From Acidobacteriota bacterium (GTDB lineage Bacteria; Acidobacteriota; UBA6911): a stretch of 64,000 bases of DNA. Made by a program: the position numbers and the translations under genes. Positions within the stretch are counted from its first letter, which is position 1; every line of letters begins with the position of its first letter. Shown piece after piece: positions 35,280-47,997 of this stretch. Where the stretch lies: assembly GCA_963664705.1 (NCBI GenBank), contig OY761556.1, positions 4,640,001 through 4,704,000 of the forward strand, read 5' to 3'. Under the pieces are notes generated by a model. That model worked only from the letters and a program-made list of their open reading frames with translations. It was not told the DNA's origin and ran no database searches.

Positions 35280-35741
35280 TCAATTTTTTGGTTTCGATAG
35301 GAATTCTGCCTTGATGGCCGCCACCGCTGCCGGCAGCATCTTCTGCACTTCGTCCGAAAGATCTGTCCCCCAGTCAATGCGCGCGGGTTCTACGCCAAAA
35401 ACCACCACTTCCGGGGAAGAACTGTTTCCGGCTAGAAACAGAGCTCGCGACAGGTCGAAGCCATGCAGGGACATGAGTCTTTCTGTCCTGGCACACTCTT
35501 TAAAGGGCACCCGATAGATCGTTCCAGGTGCATGCCCCGCCTGCATGGCATCGATGACAATGATGCGATCCGCGTTTTCCATCTCGGGAATGGAATCAAG
35601 AAATGCAGTCCCCACATCAAGTGCTAGAGTATCGGGCGGCAACGGCTCTTCCTGGAGGGCGCGAACGATATGTACGCCCACGCCCTCGTCACCAAGAAGC
35701 AGATTGCCTATTCCCAGGATAAGCAACCTTTCGCTCCTCAT
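35280..35741 (-). CDS. Hydrogenase maturation protease (HyaD/HybD family)
   Basis: LGIGNLLLGDEGVG, IDA, SLHG; ATGA overlap with the large-subunit stop. Confidence 0.92.
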   Translation of the reverse strand: MRSERLLILGIGNLLLGDEGVGVHIVRALQEEPLPPDTLALDVGTAFLDSIPEMENADRIIVIDAMQAGHAPGTIYRVPFKECARTERLMSLHGFDLSRALFLAGNSSSPEVVVFGVEPARIDWGTDLSDEVQKMLPAAVAAIKAEFLSKPKN

Positions 35742-37213
35742 CGTATTCCAGCCTCCGCAACAACCACAGGTTCCCCTTCCGGACGCATAACATGCACGGC
35801 GCAGGACAGGCAAGGGTCAAACGAATGCACAACGCGCAAAACTTCAATGGGTCGTGCCGGATCCGATATCTTGGTTCCTATCAGCGCCATTTCCATCGGC
35901 CCATGCACTCCACTGGTGTCTTTGGGGGAGGCATTCCAACAGGTTGGCGTAATAACCTGGTAGTTCGCGATGGCCGGTCCGCCGGCCGGGGCGGTAGGAG
36001 CGGTAATCGCGGAGGTGCTGACCCAATGGCCCAGCGCTCCACGAGGGGCTTCGGTAAGCCCGATACCGGATTTGCCATAGGGAGCGGTGTATTGCGTATA
36101 CACCGAACCGCCGACTCGCAGCTGTTTCACCCAGTCCATCATGGCATAGGCAATCTTTTGTGTCTCCAGGGCGCGCGCCAGGTGGCGGTCCATCACAGAG
36201 ATTCCATTGCGATAATCGCCATTCACCCACATGCGGGCCAAAGGACCGCACTCCATGGGAGCTCCTCCTAATCGCGGCGCCTTCAGCCACGAATAGGCAT
36301 TGGTTTTTGTCGCAGGGTCCACTGTTACGGTGCTTCCATTTGCCGGGTTCAGGCTATTTGTAGCATCGGAGTACCAGGAATAGGCCACATGCTCTGAAAT
36401 CATTTTCGTGGATACGGATTGCACCCGCGTGGGAGCGGTATTGACCACAAATCCACGCTTCAAAAGCTTGGAGGGGTTGGAACTGTCATCCAGATCAAAC
36501 ACTCCATAGGCAAGAAAATTGCCGAAGCCATCACCTATCTGGCTGTAATCCGGATACACCGCTTTCAGAATTTGGGCATCGGGCAGATAACAGTCATTGA
36601 TAAAGGTGATCAGCTCTTTGAGATAAGCAGTAAAAGAACTGATCAGGCTGCTGGTGGGCTTGGTCGTGAAGCCGCCGGCCTGAAAGGCGGGAGGCATGGG
36701 CATCCTGCCTCCGAAAAGCGCGCCCATTTCATGGGCCTTTCGGCGCATCGCAATCGCCTTCACAAAATTACTGGAGACCTGCTGAAGAGCTGAATCAGAT
36801 CTCATATCCACATCCCAGGTTGGGGTAAAGGGGGCGCTGGCAGGCGGCCTTATATAATCAAGTGCAGACAAAAGATAGAAGTGGAGAATATGGGATTGCA
36901 GGAAATTCGCGCCCAATACAAGGTTTCGCAGAATTCTGGCATTTGTCGGAATGAGCATGTTCGCCGCATTTTCCAACGCCAGATTGGCAGCCAGGCCGTG
37001 CGACACCGGGCACACGCCGCAGATGCGCTCCGTCAAATAGGGAGCATCCTTGGGATCTCGCCCTTTGAGTATCGTTTCGAATCCGCGGAATAGAGTCCCG
37101 GTACACCTGGCGTCGATGACCTGCTGTTGTCCTCCAACCGCATCAATGGTCACCTGAACTTTCAAATGTCCTTCAATCCGAGTCACCGGATCAACGATTG
37201 TAATGATTGACAT
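35738..37213 (-). CDS. Group 1 [NiFe] hydrogenase large subunit
   Basis: DPVTRIEGH, RICGVC (L1), DPCLSCAVH (L2, Cys rather than Sec) plus a cleavable C-terminal extension. Confidence 0.95.
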   Translation of the reverse strand: MSIITIVDPVTRIEGHLKVQVTIDAVGGQQQVIDARCTGTLFRGFETILKGRDPKDAPYLTERICGVCPVSHGLAANLALENAANMLIPTNARILRNLVLGANFLQSHILHFYLLSALDYIRPPASAPFTPTWDVDMRSDSALQQVSSNFVKAIAMRRKAHEMGALFGGRMPMPPAFQAGGFTTKPTSSLISSFTAYLKELITFINDCYLPDAQILKAVYPDYSQIGDGFGNFLAYGVFDLDDSSNPSKLLKRGFVVNTAPTRVQSVSTKMISEHVAYSWYSDATNSLNPANGSTVTVDPATKTNAYSWLKAPRLGGAPMECGPLARMWVNGDYRNGISVMDRHLARALETQKIAYAMMDWVKQLRVGGSVYTQYTAPYGKSGIGLTEAPRGALGHWVSTSAITAPTAPAGGPAIANYQVITPTCWNASPKDTSGVHGPMEMALIGTKISDPARPIEVLRVVHSFDPCLSCAVHVMRPEGEPVVVAEAGIR

Positions 37214-37271
37214 CTTTGACTCCTAAAAGTTTTGTTTGGCAAATCGACGGTTATCCAATTCGACTCCGCGC

Positions 37272-38234
37272 CTAATCATCATTCCCGTGACAGGTAGTGC
37301 ATGTGGACCTGGGACTGCTGATCGTTTTGTGATCTCTGGGCAGCGCACCCATTGTGCTGAAAAGCGGAGCATACTTGTCCGGGAATCCGCTTTGCGTGCA
37401 TCCATGGCAGAGCGAATCCGCGCCAACGCACCAATTTACGCCGTTGTTCCATTTGCGGCTCGAGCAGTCGCCATAGGTTTGCCGGCCTTTGCATCCAAGA
37501 TTATTGAGGCAAAGACCCGTCTGGCTGAGCGATGTCGCCCAGTTCGTTTCTCTTCTCGGGCATTTGCTATGAACCGTGGCGCCGAACAATGTCGTCGGTC
37601 GTCGGAAGGAATCCAACGCGACATTCTGGCCGGCCAGGAGTTGGGCTATCGTCCACACAATCCAGTCGGGATGAGGAGGGCATCCGGGGATATTGATGGT
37701 GGCGATACCTCCGGCGCTCATAACATCTTTGACTCCGGTTGGATTCGGGACAGCGCCGGGAATACCGCCAAAGGAGGCACAGGTTCCTATCGACAACACC
37801 TTCGCAGCCTTGGGTGCAAGCGTTTTGATGGCGGTCAAGGCTGTGACATCGACGCCTTTCTCCGTGTAGAGGGTGCAGGCGGCCCCGTTATATTGCGTGG
37901 GAATAGCTCCTTCCACCGCCAGAATGAACGATCCCGCCGATGCGCTTTTCAGGGTCTGAACCGCCTGGTCCCCCGCCGCTCCCATCAGTACCGAGTGATA
38001 AACGAGGTCGATTGTGTTGATGAGGAGATCCGCGACATCCACCGGCGCACTGCCGGATATCCTGTTCGCCAGAGAAACCGTGCATCCAGTGCAACTTGCC
38101 CCTTTGAGCCAGATGATGGGCGGGCCGCTGGAGTTGGAGAGAGCTTTTTCCAGCGGGCCAAGGCCGGAGGTCAGCCCAAGTGCGGCCGCCGACAAGGTGC
38201 AGTAGTTCATGAACTCTCGTCTTGTTACTTTCAT
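37272..38234 (-). CDS. Tat-exported [NiFe] hydrogenase small subunit with C-terminal CxxCH
   Basis: TRREFM signal; CTGC, GTCASFGG, PGCPPHP, HSKCPR, CL..LGCKG, WC..CHGC; ends PRDH...CTTCHGNDD. Confidence 0.93.
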   Translation of the reverse strand: MKVTRREFMNYCTLSAAALGLTSGLGPLEKALSNSSGPPIIWLKGASCTGCTVSLANRISGSAPVDVADLLINTIDLVYHSVLMGAAGDQAVQTLKSASAGSFILAVEGAIPTQYNGAACTLYTEKGVDVTALTAIKTLAPKAAKVLSIGTCASFGGIPGAVPNPTGVKDVMSAGGIATINIPGCPPHPDWIVWTIAQLLAGQNVALDSFRRPTTLFGATVHSKCPRRETNWATSLSQTGLCLNNLGCKGRQTYGDCSSRKWNNGVNWCVGADSLCHGCTQSGFPDKYAPLFSTMGALPRDHKTISSPRSTCTTCHGNDD

Positions 38235-38359
38235 TTCGTCATTCTCCCTTTGCCTGTTGCAGGACACACATATCCTGACTTACGGACGGTCGCAGTCCGC
38301 AAGGCCACGTGGGTCCTTGTTGAATGAGAGTTAGATGGCGCTTCGATTACGCGAAGTGG

Positions 38360-38374
38360 GCAAGGCTATGACCG
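38360..38374 (-). promoter_or_regulatory. Possible sigma-54 promoter of the hydrogenase operon
   Basis: CGGTCATAGCCTTGC = GG-N10-GC with a perfect TTGC but a weak -24 box. Confidence 0.35.
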
Positions 38375-38516
38375 ACATCTCATCTCTCACACTCGAATAA
38401 GTGTCGGAATAATAGATGAACCTCAGCCGGCCGGTCTGTGAGGGTTATCACGTGAGCGTAAAATCGCAAAAACGATGTTCAGAGCCTCCGGGAACGTTTG
38501 GTTTCCCGCATAGCGC

Positions 38517-40490
38517 CTACTTGGGCTCCATCTGGTGCGCATAAGCGCCCAGAGCAAGAATCGGGAAGTAATCTCTATATAGATGATATTGGATATAAAA
38601 AACCCTGGGGAACCCTGTTCCGGTAGTACTCGACTCTTCCCAGGTTCCGTCGGCCCGCTGATGATCCTGAAGCCAGCGAATTCCGCTTTGAACGGCAGTG
38701 CCGGCAACCTCGCCGGCAGCCATCAAGCCCAGCACCGCCCAGGCGGTTTGCGAGGGAGTGCTCGCCGCACGTTCGAATTGCTCGGTGTCATAGCTAAGAC
38801 AACTCTCGCCCCATCCTCCGTCCGGATTCTGGACTTCACGAAGCCACTTCGCACCCCGGGCCACAGCCTTTCTCGTCTGCGGTGCCCCAGTGGCGACAAG
38901 GCCGCGAATTGCCAGAAAAGTACCGTAGACGTAATTGACTCCCCACCTGCCGTACCAGCTTCCATTTGATTCCTGCCGCTGCAAAAGAAAATCAATCGCG
39001 CGGGTAATGGCAGGATCCTGATATTGGAATCCCCGGCGGCAAAGCGACTCCAGGACTCGTCCCGTAATATCCGCGCAGGTCGGATCCAGCATGGCGTTAT
39101 GATCCGCAAACGGCACTTTGTTGAGGATCTGCCAATTGTTATCCACATCAAACGCCGCCCACCCGCCATCGGAACTCTGCATCCCGAGCAACCACTGGAC
39201 GGCTCTGCGTTCGGCACGCTCCTGCTTTTCAGGTTCGCTCGATTTGGCATGCAGCAGCGCCAGGAGAACCATGGCCGTGTCATCAATGTCGGGGTAAAAC
39301 TCATTGGCAAACTCAAAAACCCATCCGGAAGGCGTCAAATCCGGACGCTTGGCAGCCCAGTCCCCCTTGCGCCGAATTTCCTTGGTCAGCAGCCAATCCG
39401 CGGCCGCCGTCAATGCCGCGGAGTTGCTTGCCGGTCCAAGCTCTCCCAATGCGAAGCTTGCAATGGCTGTATCCCAGACCGGAGATTTGCACGGCTGGAA
39501 AATCAGCCGGTCTTCAGTCTCCAGCATTAAGTCGTCAAACTGCCGGATCGCGAGTTGGAGATCCGGATGATCCCGCTCGTAGTTGAGCGCATCCATTGCC
39601 ATGATCGAATACATCATAGACGGGTAGATGGCTCCCAATCCTTCGCTGAATTGCAGCCGGTCGAGCATCCAGTGCTCGGCCTCCCGAATGGCATGCCCAC
39701 GGATCTTCTTGACGCTTTTGCGCTCCCAGCGCTTGAAAAGGGTATCCGCTTTGATGAACAGATTCGCAATCCGATCCTTGCGATGCAGCGCCAGCTTTCG
39801 GCTGGGATGCATGAGTTCATCAATGCGCAGGCCGTTCGGAGTTCGCTTTGTCCCACCAGCTGCCTGCACGATCGAAAGGGGAACAATGATGGTTCGCGTC
39901 CAGGAGGACATTTCGTACAGCAGGTTCCCGGGTATGATCATGATTTCGGGAGGGATGGTAGGACAGTACTTGCGCGGGAACAGATCGAAGAAACTGTAGT
40001 TGATCTTCGTGTAGCTGTTGCAGGACTGAATACCGCCGAGCCGAAGGATCAGATCCCGCGCTTTCCGCATCTGCGGAGCCTCCGGATCCGTCCCGGTCAT
40101 TTTCAGCATTGCATACGCCCGGACAGTGGCATTGATTTCCGATGGTCCCGGCTGAAAGATGCTCCATCCTCCATCCGGAAGCTGCGCCTCGACAATGGAT
40201 CGGACAGCCTTGCGAATCTTCGGCAGCGTGGGCGGATTCCACGTACCATCCGGCTTCGGCGGATACAGCCACATCTGCAGGAGAATGTAGTCCGATTGCA
40301 ACGTGGAATCGGCCGTAAGATCGCCACACCAGTACCCTTCGCGATATTGACGTGCCTCCAGGCTATGGGCGGCCGACTCTGCCGCGGCCCTGGCTGCATT
40401 CGCGGCAATTCGAGCTTCCGTTCGACTCGCCGGAGCCATCTCCTTTGCCGTAACCCTAAATTTTCGAACAATTCCCGGCAATTCATTCAT
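38517..40490 (-). CDS. shc: Squalene-hopene cyclase
   Basis: YPDIDDTA (DxDD), QW repeats (QSSDGGW, QESNGSW, QNPDGGW, QRADGTW), GTGFP; start uncertain (40529, 40490 or further downstream). Confidence 0.95.
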   Translation of the reverse strand: MNELPGIVRKFRVTAKEMAPASRTEARIAANAARAAAESAAHSLEARQYREGYWCGDLTADSTLQSDYILLQMWLYPPKPDGTWNPPTLPKIRKAVRSIVEAQLPDGGWSIFQPGPSEINATVRAYAMLKMTGTDPEAPQMRKARDLILRLGGIQSCNSYTKINYSFFDLFPRKYCPTIPPEIMIIPGNLLYEMSSWTRTIIVPLSIVQAAGGTKRTPNGLRIDELMHPSRKLALHRKDRIANLFIKADTLFKRWERKSVKKIRGHAIREAEHWMLDRLQFSEGLGAIYPSMMYSIMAMDALNYERDHPDLQLAIRQFDDLMLETEDRLIFQPCKSPVWDTAIASFALGELGPASNSAALTAAADWLLTKEIRRKGDWAAKRPDLTPSGWVFEFANEFYPDIDDTAMVLLALLHAKSSEPEKQERAERRAVQWLLGMQSSDGGWAAFDVDNNWQILNKVPFADHNAMLDPTCADITGRVLESLCRRGFQYQDPAITRAIDFLLQRQESNGSWYGRWGVNYVYGTFLAIRGLVATGAPQTRKAVARGAKWLREVQNPDGGWGESCLSYDTEQFERAASTPSQTAWAVLGLMAAGEVAGTAVQSGIRWLQDHQRADGTWEESSTTGTGFPRVFYIQYHLYRDYFPILALGAYAHQMEPK

Positions 40491-40704
40491 GCGACAACCC
40501 TTCCGAAGACTGTTTTCCAAAACCGTCATTCTAATACAGGTTTTAGGGAAATGCCTGTTTTTTTGGTTTTTGTGATCGAAACCCGTAACGTATGGCCAGG
40601 AATGCCCAAATTGTGCTATTCCTTATTGGAGGACAGCATGCACCGCAGACCGCCCTCCCTTGCAGGTGCCATCAGATACCATGGATGCTGGATAAGGAGA
40701 GTAT

Positions 40705-43001: not shown

Positions 43002-45446
43002 CTACAGGTTGTGCTCGTTTCTATTAATAACGTCGTCCTGAATATCCGGAGAAAGCTGTGTGAAGTACGCGCTGAATCCTCCGATGCGGACAATCAGATC
43101 CCTGTGATTCTCCGGGTGGATTTTGGCATCCCTCAGCTCGTTGGTATCCACCATATTATATTGAATGTGCGAGCCGCCGTTTGACAGAAACGCATTGGTG
43201 TACGTCACAAGCTTATCGATGCTCTCGGCGCTTCGAATCATTGCCGAGGAAAATTTCTGGTTCAGAACGGAGGCATGGGACTCGCTGGATCCTGCCTTCA
43301 GAACCGAACGAAGCACTGCCGTAGGTCCCTTCCTGTCGGCACCCCTCATCGGAGAGATAGAGCCGTCGTTGAGCGGTTCAAGGGCTTTTCTGCCGTTGGG
43401 CAGAGCCCCCACGCCCAGCCCGCCGAAGTAGTGCCAGGCCAGGCCTTCTCGGGCGACCATGTAATTGCGGAATGGAGCATTGTCGTAGCTCCGGATTATT
43501 CGATAGGAGTCTTCACTGATCTTCTTGGCAAGCAGATCCACATCGCTCAGATCATTCCCGAATTTGGGCTGAGCCAGGCACATCTGCCGGATTTCCTCAC
43601 CCCGCTTGCCGTCAAAGTTGGTCTCGAGGGCATTCAGCAGTTCACGCATCGACAGCTTCTTATCGTCGAATACCAGCTTCTTTACTGCCATTAGTGAATC
43701 GGCGACATCCACGATCGCCCTGTCTGAAATGCCAAACATGGAGTACACAGGATCCGGAATCACCAGATCTTGGCCCTGATCCATGCATCGCTGAATTCCC
43801 ATGGTTGATAAAAACGGGAGCCGCATATGCTTCGGTTGCTCTTTGCGGGCAATCCCGGCCAACCAGAACGAGCGGTGCGTGATGAATTGGTGCTGTTTCA
43901 TTAACGCACTATACAATTCATCAAAGCTCTTGAATTCCGCCGGATCGCCTGTTTCCAGCCCGGTGCGGTTGCCGTTTATATCGACTCCGTTATGAAGGAC
44001 CAGATGAAGCATTGCGGCCAGGTTACAGGCGGCAATACCCTCGGCTCCATAATGCTCCGCCCTTGATGGCAGACACGGATACACACAGCCCAAACCGCAC
44101 CATTCTGCCGCCTCCTCCATTGGGATCCCGTCTTCCAGGAAATGCTGAATAACGACATCGTCATTTTCAAAAAGGGGAATACCGCCTTTGGTCGCCATGT
44201 TGGTGCGGATGGCTTTGCTCATCAACCACTGGGGCGTGGCCTTGTTCCAACGCAGTCCCAAGGTGGGCGAGGAAAGCTGCAGGAGTCCGATGACGTGCAG
44301 GAAGAGATAGCTCAATTCGTTGGAGCAGTCGGTTCCGGTCTTGTCCACCCCGCCGATCATGACATTGTTAATGCCGAAATTGATCTGGTGGGATTCTTTG
44401 AGGCTCTCAGAAGCAACAAACGTCTGGGTTCCCCATCGTCCAATCAACTCTGCAAGCAACTCCGCGGCTCTCTCGACCGTGAGCATGCCGTTATTGATAT
44501 CCCGGATGAAATAGGGATACAGATATTGATCGCCGCGTCCCCATTGCGGATTGTTGTGCATCGGATGTTCGTAGAGTTTGCATACGCCGATGATGGCCAT
44601 GGCCTGCAGGGCTTCCTGAAAGGTTCTGGCCGGATGCTCGGGCACGTGTTCGCAGATGCCCGCAATCTGAAGCAGTTCGGCTTTGCGTTCCGGACGCGTT
44701 TCCGCTTTTGCCATTTCCTTTGCCAGCGCCGCATACCTGCGCGCATGGTTAATGGCCGCCTCGCTGACGATGATGGCAGACTTCCAGAAGTACAACTTAT
44801 CGATATCGGATTCGCGGTTTGCAATAAATGCATCGATATGGGCCTGCGCTTCCTGAATGAAGCCCCGAAGCCCGGTTTCGAGTATCTTTTTCCACATCAG
44901 CACGGAAGTGGTCTGTCCGTATATCGCGGTATCCAGGGTAGGATCTTTCAGTTTGGCTGCTTCGACATCTTTGATCCAGGAACCCACGACCGCTTCCCAT
45001 GCCTTATAGGTCATTTCGGGTGCGGTTTTTCCCCGAAATTCGCGCGCGCTCTCACGCAGTATCTCGAGGCTCTCGGGATCCATTCCAACATTCGCATCCA
45101 TTGTGATCTGAAGCGCGGCCGTGTCTTTCCAGATGTCAGGAACATAATCACCGCAGACGTCAAACGAGGTCGCGCATCCGATGACCCCTGGCGTCGGACG
45201 CCCTACAATCACATCGTAATCGTGAATCCGGATCTCGACATTCTCGACAATCTTCCTAAAAAGCATGGCGCGCCGTATCTGAATGTCCTCCCCCTCAGTT
45301 TCCCGCCATGACGCCACAGTCCATTTTTCCCTGTCCGCAAATAGCTTCCAGCCCGATTCCTTCATGGCCTTCTTCCACTGCTGGATCCGTTCGCCTAGCT
45401 GTACTGCATCAATTCGGTTGAGGAGTTCCCTGTTCACTTCAGCCAT
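43002..45446 (-). CDS. Glycyl-radical enzyme (PFL2 superfamily), substrate unknown
   Basis: 814 aa; PEHPARTFQEALQ, GRGDQYLYPY, Cys loop WCGLGCVYP, PKFGND, Gly loop LIVRIGGFSAYF. Confidence 0.93.
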   Translation of the reverse strand: MAEVNRELLNRIDAVQLGERIQQWKKAMKESGWKLFADREKWTVASWRETEGEDIQIRRAMLFRKIVENVEIRIHDYDVIVGRPTPGVIGCATSFDVCGDYVPDIWKDTAALQITMDANVGMDPESLEILRESAREFRGKTAPEMTYKAWEAVVGSWIKDVEAAKLKDPTLDTAIYGQTTSVLMWKKILETGLRGFIQEAQAHIDAFIANRESDIDKLYFWKSAIIVSEAAINHARRYAALAKEMAKAETRPERKAELLQIAGICEHVPEHPARTFQEALQAMAIIGVCKLYEHPMHNNPQWGRGDQYLYPYFIRDINNGMLTVERAAELLAELIGRWGTQTFVASESLKESHQINFGINNVMIGGVDKTGTDCSNELSYLFLHVIGLLQLSSPTLGLRWNKATPQWLMSKAIRTNMATKGGIPLFENDDVVIQHFLEDGIPMEEAAEWCGLGCVYPCLPSRAEHYGAEGIAACNLAAMLHLVLHNGVDINGNRTGLETGDPAEFKSFDELYSALMKQHQFITHRSFWLAGIARKEQPKHMRLPFLSTMGIQRCMDQGQDLVIPDPVYSMFGISDRAIVDVADSLMAVKKLVFDDKKLSMRELLNALETNFDGKRGEEIRQMCLAQPKFGNDLSDVDLLAKKISEDSYRIIRSYDNAPFRNYMVAREGLAWHYFGGLGVGALPNGRKALEPLNDGSISPMRGADRKGPTAVLRSVLKAGSSESHASVLNQKFSSAMIRSAESIDKLVTYTNAFLSNGGSHIQYNMVDTNELRDAKIHPENHRDLIVRIGGFSAYFTQLSPDIQDDVINRNEHNL

Positions 45447-45501
45447 TTTTCACCTCGCTGCTTGCTTTGTTGCCACCCATCCTGCGAAATAGTCCAATAA
45501 A

Positions 45502-46416
45502 TCACCTAGAAATCGTACAGTCAATGCCGTACCCGACATACGCCTGTCGAACGGCTTCCAGCTGTGCCTCATCCATGGGAACAATTTCCTCGATCGCACA
45601 CGGCACGTCCAGCGCCCGGTATTTGCTCTGGCCCATTCGGTGGTACGGCATCAGCTGCAGTCTTGCTGCTTTGCCGCCGAGATTAGCCAGAAACCTGGCG
45701 GTTGCATCTATATTCTCGCTCGAATCATTAATTCCAGGGATCAGCGGCTGTCGGAACAATACATCGCTCGCGCGCTCCACGACCAGTCTGGCATTATTTA
45801 AGATCTGATCGTTGAATTGTCCAGTGTACCGCCGGTGAACACTCGAATCCATGTGCTTCAGATCAAACAGGAAATGATCGGTCACCGGAATGACCTGGAT
45901 AAATGCCTCCGGATCGACGAACCCGCACGTTTCCACGCATGTATCAATATGCTGCTGGCGGCTCAACTCAAAGAGCTCCCGGACAAACTGCGCCCTGAGC
46001 AGGGGCTCGCCGCCGGAAACGGTCACCCCTCCGCCGGAACTGTCATAAAACATTTTATCGCGCTGAACAGCATCCCAAACCTCGGCAACGGTCATGGGTT
46101 CGCCATACCGAACCAGAGCGCCGTGATAGCACTGCTCTTTGCATTTACCGCAGGATTTGCAGCGGGAATAATCGATGCGGTGTTCCCCTTCGCCGGCCTG
46201 GATGGCATGATTGGGACAGGCATCCAGGCATTTTCCACAATTTGCGCAGAGGGTTCGGATAAAGCCGATCAGCGGCGATCCCGGCAGGCATTCCGGATTG
46301 GCACACCACTGGCATGCCAGCGGACAGCCTTTGAAAAAAACAACGGTTCGAATCCCGGGGCCATCATGAATGGAAAAGCCCTGGATGTTCGTGATGATTG
46401 CACTCTGCATCGTCAT
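45502..46416 (-). CDS. Glycyl-radical enzyme activating enzyme (radical SAM with ferredoxin insert)
   Basis: HDGPGIRTVVFFKGCPLACQWCANPE; two extra CxxCxxCxxxC motifs; GGVTVSGGEP; start 46416 or 46410. Confidence 0.95.
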   Translation of the reverse strand: MTMQSAIITNIQGFSIHDGPGIRTVVFFKGCPLACQWCANPECLPGSPLIGFIRTLCANCGKCLDACPNHAIQAGEGEHRIDYSRCKSCGKCKEQCYHGALVRYGEPMTVAEVWDAVQRDKMFYDSSGGGVTVSGGEPLLRAQFVRELFELSRQQHIDTCVETCGFVDPEAFIQVIPVTDHFLFDLKHMDSSVHRRYTGQFNDQILNNARLVVERASDVLFRQPLIPGINDSSENIDATARFLANLGGKAARLQLMPYHRMGQSKYRALDVPCAIEEIVPMDEAQLEAVRQAYVGYGIDCTISR

Positions 46417-46518
46417 TCCGACAAAGGATACATCGGCAATGATGAAATTGCTATTTCTTAGAGTCTCCACAAAGTTAGAGAAAGCTCATTAGCTCTAAGA
46501 CATAGACGCCTCGCAAAA

Positions 46519-47310
46519 TCAGCCGGCCAGTACCGAAGCATCCAGTGCATGCACACCGGCATCGCAGGTAAACTCGGAGGCGGTGGTATACGCGGATTCA
46601 TCGCTGGCCAGGTAAACAAAAAGTCCGGCAATTTCGGGTGGGAACGCAATGCGTTTGAGCGGGGCCGGTCCCGCCATGGTCTTCAGGCGTTCTTCCACGC
46701 TTATTCCGGCCGCGTGCGCCGTTTCTTCCAGCCTTCGATCGAACATTTCCGAGCGGAAGGCGCCGGGCAATATCACATTGCTGCGAATTTTTTGGTCACC
46801 GAAATCCATGGCCACCTGTCGCGAAAGCCCAAGCAATCCTGATTTTGCCGAGCAATACGCCGCTGCAAATGGAAGGCCCCGAATCGCACCAATCGATGCA
46901 ACATTAATAATGGAGCCGCCACCGGCCCGGAGCATATGCGGAATCGCATATTTCATTACAAGAAACGGTCCGGTCAGATTGGTGTCCATCACCTTTTGCC
47001 AGAGATTGATCTCCATGTCGACGACTGTTCCCGGAACTCCCATCGCGGCATTGTTTACTACGATGTCCAGTTTGCCTCCGAAAGCCGCAGCGGTTTCCAC
47101 CATGCGCTGCACATCTTCCAGCTTGCTGACATCCGCGACGCATACGGTGATCTGACTGCTGGAAAAACGCCCAGCCATCTTGTCCAGTTCTTCACGGCGA
47201 CGGCCGGTAATGCAAACCTTGGCTCCTTCGTTGATGAATGCCTCGGCAACAGCAGCGCCAATGCCCGTGCCGCCTCCGGTAATCAATGCCACCTTTCCCT
47301 GCAATCTCAT
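46519..47310 (-). CDS. Short-chain dehydrogenase/reductase
   Basis: TGGGTGIG, NNAA, YCSAK catalytic motif. Confidence 0.93.
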   Translation of the reverse strand: MRLQGKVALITGGGTGIGAAVAEAFINEGAKVCITGRRREELDKMAGRFSSSQITVCVADVSKLEDVQRMVETAAAFGGKLDIVVNNAAMGVPGTVVDMEINLWQKVMDTNLTGPFLVMKYAIPHMLRAGGGSIINVASIGAIRGLPFAAAYCSAKSGLLGLSRQVAMDFGDQKIRSNVILPGAFRSEMFDRRLEETAHAAGISVEERLKTMAGPAPLKRIAFPPEIAGLFVYLASDESAYTTASEFTCDAGVHALDASVLAG

Positions 47311-47538
47311 GCGCTTCTCCTGTTGAGTAAAGCTCGTTGGATTCGAACTGTATCTCTATACGAGGATGGGCCTTTTTGCAAATAAATTGGTGACCCTGGG
47401 GACCGGCAAAAAGTCGAACTCAAAGAGATAAGTTGAGAACCCGATTGACAGTTGATCCGGGACTGGAATTAAATGAACGGCATATCGGATGCAGGGCATG
47501 CACGCCGCATGTCTTTGCATCATCTTAAAGGAGCTAGT

Positions 47539-47997
47539 ATGGGAGACCCCAAGGAACCTAAAGCTGTGGTTAGCACTAATCTCGAATTGCCTGCGGGCGT
47601 TCACAACTTCGAAGTTGATGACCTTGCAGACAAGGCGCCCGATTCGGACCCGATCAAACGGGTTATCTATATCGACGAGAGGATCATACCGGGATCGTTC
47701 TATGTTGAAGCTTGCTGGGTCGTGGGCTCCGTACCGAGGTCCCATCCGGAACACACCCATCCGGACTACGATGAAATTGTCGGCTTTGTCGGCAGTAATA
47801 TGGAAGATCCCAATGACCTGGGTGCGGAAATCGATTTCGTCGTTGGCGATCAGAAGATGACGATCACCAAAACCTGCTTTATTCACGTGCCTGCCGGGGT
47901 CAGTCATGGCGGGCTTTGCTTCCGAAAAATTGACCGGCCGGTGTTTCAGATCGCGATGTCCCGGATGCCCGCCTTCTCAAGCATTCCACCTACATAG
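47539..47997 (+). CDS. Cupin-like metal-binding protein
   Basis: HTHPDYDE ... HVPAGVSHG cupin motifs; AAGGAG RBS. Confidence 0.75.
   Translation: MGDPKEPKAVVSTNLELPAGVHNFEVDDLADKAPDSDPIKRVIYIDERIIPGSFYVEACWVVGSVPRSHPEHTHPDYDEIVGFVGSNMEDPNDLGAEIDFVVGDQKMTITKTCFIHVPAGVSHGGLCFRKIDRPVFQIAMSRMPAFSSIPPT

Follow-up and report, generated by a model that had tools for sequence, protein, structure and literature searches.

A glycyl-radical enzyme of no characterised family, with a GCVYP cysteine loop and a recurring cupin partner, in an Acidobacteriota genome

Glycyl-radical enzymes (GREs) share an established chemistry in which a glycyl radical, carried in a C-terminal RVxG[FWY] motif, gives rise to a thiyl radical that abstracts a hydrogen atom, and many GRE clades are known to be unannotated (PMC13450708). 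The solved structures closest to the enzyme considered here are the B12-independent glycerol/1,2-propanediol dehydratases (1r8w, 5i2g, 9rco). Our subject is an 814-residue GRE encoded at 43002..45446 on the minus strand of a 64,000-nt window of DNA from an Acidobacteriota bacterium (assembly GCA_963664705.1, contig OY761556.1, positions 4,640,001–4,704,000 of the forward strand). The gene is intact, matches Pfam PF02901 and PF01228, and has a gene for a radical-SAM (S-adenosylmethionine) activase next to it (45502..46470, minus strand). It represents the GCVYP/REGL subclade, and the protein is a real member of the superfamily that belongs to no characterised family.

Membership is apparent from both radical loops and from the cognate activase. 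Near the C-terminus, the Gly loop RIGGF (residues 787–791, 43074..43088) contains the radical site G790, aligned with G763 of glycerol dehydratase (GD). The Cys loop WCGLGCVYPC (residues 449–458, 44073..44102) contains the catalytic C454 (44085–44087), aligned with GD C433. The adjacent activase scored 331 bits against the GRE-activase model TIGR02494 (cut-off 174) and has a CX3CX2C motif followed by two auxiliary 4Fe-4S (ferredoxin) motifs. Both loops were located exactly where the original prediction had put them, but RIGGF is nothing unusual: it fits the ordinary RVxG[FWY] motif, and IseG likewise has Ile at that position. Among 172 clade sequences (120 proteins and 52 locus translations, overlapping sets), C454 is invariant and G790 is present in all 172, so that the Ala, Ser or Thr found in place of the radical Gly in aminoacyl radical enzymes does not occur. 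An AlphaFold model (pLDDT 93.9) has the 10-stranded barrel of GREs and, in Foldseek searches, superposed on solved pyruvate formate-lyase (PFL)-like GREs with TM-scores of 0.86–0.92, diol dehydratases coming first (0.90–0.92).

Distance from characterised enzymes is equally clear. Identity to GD, HypD, CutC, PflD, YbiW and an HpsG/IslA-family protein is 29–33%, and the GRE missed every cut-off among 12 NCBIfam GRE models (bits/cut-off: CutC 383/1050, HypD 401/1100, HpsG 461/1000, HpfG 340/1000, PFL2-3 485/678; those for decarboxylases and PFL itself are given below). In a midpoint-rooted FastTree phylogeny (194 sequences, 755 columns; sequences outside 740–960 aa excluded except six), the GRE falls in a clade of SH support 1.0 that holds none of the tree anchors, the anchor set being one without true benzylsuccinate synthase (BSS), HPAD, IAD, AAD or PFL sequences; no true IAD anchor was found in 201 Clostridia genomes. 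A search of the ESM Atlas returned generic GRE clusters only. We found no literature on the GCVYP clade in a survey that did not extend to subscription journals and supplements, which possibly hold GRE networks including these sequences, and the excerpt of PMC11528403 does not mention the clade under the terms tried. The original prediction that this GRE is uncharacterised and distant from anything characterised has therefore held up in identity as well as in phylogeny, where the close clustering with a characterised enzyme that would have spoken against it is not seen.

How the enzyme differs from its described relatives is instructive. Like the glycerol/propanediol dehydratases, it is a single-subunit GRE with a ferredoxin-domain activase and the same Cys and Gly loops, but identity is just 27–32%, and the host genome has no microcompartment genes. 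Several GD active-site residues are replaced (E435 by Y, H164 by Q, H281/S282 by N/N, D447 by G and Y640 by E), and an Arg is added at position 576. CutC, HypD, IslA/IseG/HpsG and YbiW/PflD share the fold and the radical relay, whereas all of them keep the CXE motif and form separate clades at 29–33% identity. In IslA, IseG and HpsG, arginines anchor an anionic substrate (PMC13450708), a likeness to the query GRE, although the IslA-type Arg position corresponds to its A665. AAD (7e7l) is 29% identical, ranked below the dehydratases, and does not qualify as an orthologue. The benzylsuccinate and methylalkylsuccinate synthases (BSS and MASS) also lack Glu at C+2, but they need small Fe-S subunits, which were not found here, and are 23–26% identical. 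PhdB, too, is without a Cys-loop Glu. It needs Q484, W495 and Y691, where our GRE has Y, G (or E one residue away) and E, as compared through a PhdB look-alike, P0215.

The original prediction singled out the Cys loop, in which Tyr replaces Glu and extra Cys residues flank the catalytic one. Y456 does occupy the position of the CXE glutamate, and the GCVYP loop is not a sequencing error, because 119 of the best 120 of 1329 homologues (77–100% identical) share it, the other having GCIYP. However, Tyr is not a defining feature. Position 456 in the clade is Y in 164, T in seven and Q in one of the 172 sequences, W occurs in one further sister, and GCVY/GCIY loops are also found in unrelated tree branches; Tyr was accordingly ruled out as a clade signature. 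A separate Desulfobacterota GRE clade (L098, L102, L103, L118, L119 and P0195), for instance, combines GCVYL or GCVYI with a DGS motif at the 665–667 positions, and its Tyr at C+2 appears to be independent. Nor is a Glu-less loop out of the ordinary: PhdB has Gln at this position (PMC7079210), BSS has Met494 (PMC11194802), and Glu at C+2 is present in only 64 of 141 representative GREs, a set biased toward relatives of the query. The flanking cysteines are not special either. Cys at −4 is also seen in CutC and in 16 of the 141 representatives, while C450 is kept in 164 of 172 clade sequences and C458 in 160, with T, S, I or V in the remaining 12. The idea of a PFL-like cysteine pair was rejected since neither position is conserved.

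Strict conservation is found at other positions, all encoded on the minus strand. Invariant in 172 of 172 sequences are the polar pair H353-Q354 (44385..44390), which precedes the strand equivalent to GD Y339; D575-R576 (43719..43724) on model strand 569–576, invariant also in alignment A3; R666-E667-G668-L669 (43440..43451) at the end of model strand 662–666; and W671 and H672. Position 469 (44040..44042), a second conserved carboxylate, is always acidic (E in 151, D in 21). To fix the register we used Clostridium butyricum GD, in whose fetched sequence the active-site residues H164, H281, C433, E435, D447, Y640 and G763 were confirmed. In alignments with GD and CutC, E667 corresponds to GD Y640, E469 to CutC T502, S574 to GD Q549 and Q178 to GD H164, which places E667 and E469 at pocket positions. 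The S574/Q549 position lies at Cys+116, the same spacing as that of L616, a pocket residue of IAD (PMC13232127). R576 is predicted to face the pocket because it is on the same model strand as S574, two residues further along. In P0215 (GCVQS, Trp at C+13, S-x-Y-x-V), which is 30% identical to our GRE and lies outside its clade, the Tyr aligns with E667; PhdB cannot do without the equivalent residue, Y691, for which a role as proton donor has been proposed (PMC7079210). In BSS, Q707 packs against the catalytic Cys (PMC11194802) and has nearly the spacing of E667 (C+214 versus C+213). Other pocket residues are smaller than in GD or CutC (GD Y339 to I, GD D447 to G, CutC Y506 to A). Moreover, 18 of the 19 representatives with both R576 and R666-x-G668 lack the loop Glu, while among the 110 with neither, 48 lack it and 62 have it (n = 141; these sequences are kin rather than independent). 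The simplest reading of the sequences is that the acid/base has probably been relocated, leaving the Cys loop for the barrel, with E667 the candidate residue because it aligns with GD Y640 and, via the look-alike, with PhdB Y691, and that an Arg, R576 being the candidate, was added to bind an anionic substrate.

What might such an enzyme do? Because each GRE active site is adapted to a single substrate, the clade, which is 73–88% identical across phyla and near-universal in one uncultured anaerobe genus, probably stands for a single, specific anaerobic reaction that is abundant and as yet undescribed. The reading we tentatively prefer, while giving it somewhat less than even chances, is that the GRE acts on a hydroxylated organic acid, predicted to derive from plant esters, and cleaves a C–O bond in it, whether by dehydration or by opening an ether or a ring. 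In favour are the diol dehydratases as closest solved folds, the relocated acid/base and added Arg suggested by the alignments, the recurring partners described below and, at a few loci, TRAP or MFS transporter genes. In the proposed mechanism, the activase would install the radical on G790, from which it would pass to C454, and the C454 thiyl radical would abstract a hydrogen atom from the carbinol carbon. R576 would hold the substrate carboxylate, E667 or E469 would act as the base in place of the missing Cys-loop glutamate, H353 would protonate the leaving group, and Y456 would merely shape the pocket. C–O cleavage would then yield an enol or carbonyl product, which the cupin might ketonise or epimerise, and SnoaL proteins and old yellow enzyme (OYE)-type ene-reductases, locally joined by a short-chain dehydrogenase/reductase (SDR) or by alcohol dehydrogenase (ADH), aldehyde dehydrogenase (ALDH) or aldehyde oxidoreductase (AOR), might act downstream. 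Candidate substrate classes include quinate/shikimate-type cyclitol acids, aryl-lactate or aryl-glycerate, and deoxy sugar acids. If the base has indeed moved to the barrel, the CXE rule for predicting GRE chemistry would miss a whole lyase class; should a plant phenolic or a cyclitol acid prove to be the substrate, the reaction would bear on plant carbon breakdown in anoxic peat, sediment and rumen. The superfamily itself is known; new here are an active-site hypothesis with named residues (E667, E469, R576, H353), a set of partners and a choice of substrate classes, which make this widespread yet unstudied branch a lead for enzyme discovery.

The partner best conserved after the activase is a small cupin, encoded divergently on the plus strand (open reading frame (ORF) 47473–47997, likely true start 47539, preceded by a GGAG motif). 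It has no Pfam match, but its structural model (pLDDT 79.9) matches cupin folds and shows a jelly-roll with a predicted His/His/Glu/His metal site (H72, H74, E79, H123). Profile searches against PDB gave as best matches the 2-oxo-acid epimerase MarH (6j4b, E 1.6e-7) and 7eqk (E 2.8e-6). MarH-type epimerases and KdgF, which have the same H-x-H..E..H arrangement in a cupin fold, act through enol intermediates. The cupin family, whose scanned members have no Pfam match, is highly expanded, with 20 copies in the host and 2–52 matches in five other carriers; the 52 belong to a 1.7-Mb Dehalococcoidales genome (G123). The host also has about 14 tannase genes. Since cupin and tannase genes are this abundant, generic proximity was discounted as evidence and partner links were counted at orthologue level only.

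At that level, the cupin is present in 22 of 29 genomes of the same genus, all of which carry the GRE, and in none of the class's other genomes searched (n = 91). In 14 of 23 genomes no more than 5 kb separates it from the GRE, and activase sequence is found within 1.5 kb of it in 19 of 23. In Desulfobacterota, where only 5 of 201 genomes matched the cupin family at E 1e-15, the orthologue was found in just those 3 of 201 that have the GRE, and it adjoins the GRE in one. One cupin orthologue thus accompanies the GRE across two phyla. In two genomes the GRE has moved and the cupin still stands beside the activase, while in two others the cupin adjoins the GRE and the activase is not adjacent. 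Such physical linkage in several differing arrangements is stronger evidence than co-occurrence. Two loci (L001 and L065, G089:C7) have a cupin-SDR-activase block about 27 kb from the GRE, with activase fragments directly upstream of the GRE; the cluster was possibly split by an insertion. Among 33 mostly short metagenome cupin loci, SDR was seen in 13 and activase or GRE sequence (at least 55% identity) in eight.

The SDR behaves differently. It is a classical SDR (46519..47310, minus strand; TGGGTGIG, NNAA and YCSAK motifs) for which model searches gave no specific family assignment. Its orthologue was detected in 6 of 29 same-genus genomes and in 5 of 57 GRE loci, all from Acidobacteriota, so it was ruled out as a core partner and is an accessory, local passenger confined to close relatives. 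The original prediction had described co-oriented SDR, activase and GRE genes with a divergent cupin-like gene, and all four ORFs are in place; of the conserved SDR/cupin linkage it envisaged, the cupin half is borne out and the SDR half is not.

Going by record titles, the genome scan that yielded these 57 loci found 27 in Acidobacteriota, 17 in Desulfobacterota/delta, seven in Dehalococcoidales, four in gut Firmicutes and two in spirochaetes. Of 29 same-genus genomes, 28 carry the GRE gene, against none of 91 others from the class, and close orthologues (73–75%) occur in 3 of 201 Desulfobacterota genomes. According to bioRxiv 2021.04.09.439258, members of the UBA6911 family use sugars and debranch side chains, and genus UBA6911 is predicted to degrade benzoate. 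The activase lies within the fetched flanks in 47 loci; in L018, L027 and L051 the GRE and activase are split into several frames in the assemblies. Orthologue-level partners comprise the cupin (16 loci), a tannase/feruloyl-esterase (8), SnoaL (8), OYE-A (5) and OYE-B with SnoaL (5), each in two or three phyla, where the expectation for a single-copy gene is about 0.15 loci; at least one is present in 33 loci. The SnoaL group of eight loci spans three phyla. The best solved relatives of the esterase and flavoenzyme partners, all distant, are feruloyl/MHET esterases and multi-flavin ene-reductases. In the host, the partners other than the cupin are encoded away from the GRE: the tannase/feruloyl-esterase (tannase-B, 4876043–4877581) adjoins OYE-A (contig C1, 4876043–4879602 for the pair), OYE-B and SnoaL are at 2989151–2991784, and the copy of the three-phylum SnoaL group is at 3216980. 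OYE-A was detected in 22 of the 29 genomes of the genus and, among Desulfobacterota, in just those 3 of 201 that have the GRE.

The tannase/OYE-A pair belongs to a host region (G000:C1:4853542–4879602) lying 170–190 kb from the GRE. Besides OYE-A, this region encodes three tannase-family proteins, a sigma-54 activator, a member of the 2-hydroxyacyl-CoA dehydratase family and an ALDH. This ALDH is 85% identical to the one adjoining the GRE in L034, where the genes run iron-dependent ADH (Fe-ADH), activase, GRE, ALDH, OYE. Also in the host genome, a GRE paralogue (G000:C1:2693193–2695682), 58% identical, has a GCVQP loop and the same D-R and REGL motifs, is flanked by carboxylesterases and a flavoprotein, and has no activase adjoining. 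The host has eight GREs and only four activases above cut-off, and so some activases likely serve several GREs. Paralogues of the wider Arg-bearing superclade (D-R/R-x-G) number at least eight in each of two Dehalococcoidia genomes (eight scored of 29 and 17 candidates); some of the Dehalococcoidia paralogues (L166–L192; G561, G579, G605) are in tandem, and they keep D-R and R-x-G with varied Cys loops.

A number of observations weigh against C–O cleavage in a plant-derived acid. CXE is retained in all eliminases and isomerases characterised so far (PMC13450708), whereas our GRE has C-V-Y, and the ranking of folds among GREs is nearly flat (TM-scores 0.86–0.92). The orientation predicted for the E667 and R576 side chains comes from alignment and strand alternation; R666 may have a structural role, and the charge of R576 may be cancelled by E667. 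The cupin's fold matches are generic (TM-score about 0.5), and its identity to MarH-type epimerases is 16–18%. Partners are not obligatory across carriers: the cupin orthologue was absent from 5 of 5 Firmicutes and spirochaete carriers searched (best match 42%), no tannase turned up in any of five distant carriers, in a search whose control was silent, and tannase-B is present in only 15 of 29 same-genus genomes. ALDH occurs in 1 of 57 loci and AOR in three. The 57 loci are themselves kin rather than independent. Moreover, of 15 ORFs surrounding an unrelated GCVDP GRE, nine share 60% identity or more with host genes, and that GRE, too, has cupin, UGSC and esterase genes for neighbours. Acidobacteriota and Desulfobacterota carriers thus share a broad catabolic gene set, and so the co-occurrence of partners reflects lifestyle at least in part.

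The main rival, which we consider rather unlikely, is that the GRE decarboxylates an organic acid, aromatic or otherwise, by PhdB-like radical chemistry. Here the carboxylate would rest on Cys-loop amides freed by the loss of Glu, E667 would donate the proton and R576 would stack on the ring like R226 of IAD, with esterases supplying the acid and major facilitator superfamily (MFS) or TRAP carriers importing it. PhdB is indeed Glu-less and, as aligned via its look-alike, has its proposed proton donor at the E667 position; IAD uses Arg for cation–pi stacking (PMC13232127); and neighbours include esterase genes as well as TRAP transporter genes in 2 of 57 loci (L032, L050) and MFS genes directly after the GRE in L048 and L123. 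However, the GRE scored only 351 bits against the IAD model (cut-off 1100) and 261 against HPAD (cut-off 1150), and P0215 itself, as noted, is a distant sequence from outside the clade. The predicted pocket is polar (H353, Q354, E469, R576, E667), whereas those of IAD and PhdB are hydrophobic, and decarboxylation leaves the conserved cupin, SnoaL and ene-reductases unexplained. About equally doubtful is a GRE reaction type not yet described, such as skeleton rearrangement or C–N or C–S cleavage of an anionic substrate, common to the whole superclade, with the cupin serving the GRE or activase through metal delivery or as an accessory subunit. The superclade, at SH support 1.0, contains no anchors and has multiplied in the two Dehalococcoidia genomes, and the cupin's position beside whichever of GRE and activase stayed in place would suit such a role; still, no positive evidence points to any given chemistry of this kind, and the failure to find the cupin orthologue in five distant carriers argues against an essential subunit.

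Two further chemistries fail their defining tests. Formate-lyase-type C–C cleavage of a 2-oxo acid (e.g. arylpyruvate), with C450 or C458 as acyl carrier, Arg binding the substrate and the cupin providing the keto tautomer, would account for the two invariant arginines and the cupin's likeness to 2-oxo-acid epimerases, but it is very unlikely given the lack of an adjacent Cys-Cys pair, the replacement of C450 in 8 and of C458 in 12 of 172 sequences, and a PFL model (TIGR01255) score of 77 bits against a cut-off of 994. The least probable is a fumarate-adding C–C bond formation like that of X-succinate synthases. BSS is Glu-less as well, and in it the fumarate carboxylates are bound by the Cys-loop backbone and by Arg (PMC11194802); a CoA-transferase III gene also lies near 1 of 57 loci (L022). 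Against this stand the missing small Fe-S subunits nearby, the low identity to BSS/MASS, an activase score of 194 bits against the BssD model (cut-off 496) and the absence of recurring beta-oxidation genes among the neighbours scanned.

The C–O cleavage reading also has a more specific form, which is improbable as a whole: the D-R/R-x-G superclade, expanded in some sediment Dehalococcoidia, would be a large, wholly uncharacterised GRE class with its acid/base moved to the barrel, and this enzyme would be its founding member. The GCVYP enzyme would use radical chemistry, without oxygen, to cleave a phenolic ether from plants, such as a beta-aryl-ether fragment, or a cyclitol acid such as quinate, in a dispersed esterase-GRE-cupin-SnoaL-ene-reductase pathway of peat, sediment, digester and gut anaerobes. 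Another lead, in which the SDR would be phloroglucinol reductase and the cupin the ring hydrolase of the phloroglucinol pathway, was rejected, as that hydrolase is a 'cyclase'-family protein and the excerpt of PMC10470551 makes no mention of a cupin.

Regarding the surroundings of the locus, the original prediction noted neither microcompartment genes nor small beta/gamma subunit genes nearby. Both statements proved right: no bacterial microcompartment (BMC) shell genes were detected in the whole 6.9-Mb genome, in a search whose control gave matches in 2 of 14 genomes, and the intergenic gaps hold no conserved small Cys-rich ORF, the lone candidate (70 aa, 4 Cys) being unmatched in 57 related loci. 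A promoter scan of the locus gave nothing above shuffled sequence (2 versus 4.5), and GC content is unremarkable. Just outside the cluster, at 35738–40529 of the window, are genes for the large and small subunits of a NiFe hydrogenase and a squalene-hopene cyclase, none of which is among the recurring neighbours. Finally, L124 (G269:C4:45000–58629) features an unrelated GCVEM GRE with its activase in a co-oriented run, possibly a biosynthetic cluster, whose other genes resemble, on visual inspection, those for ketosynthases, an SDR, a cyclase and a B12 radical-SAM enzyme.

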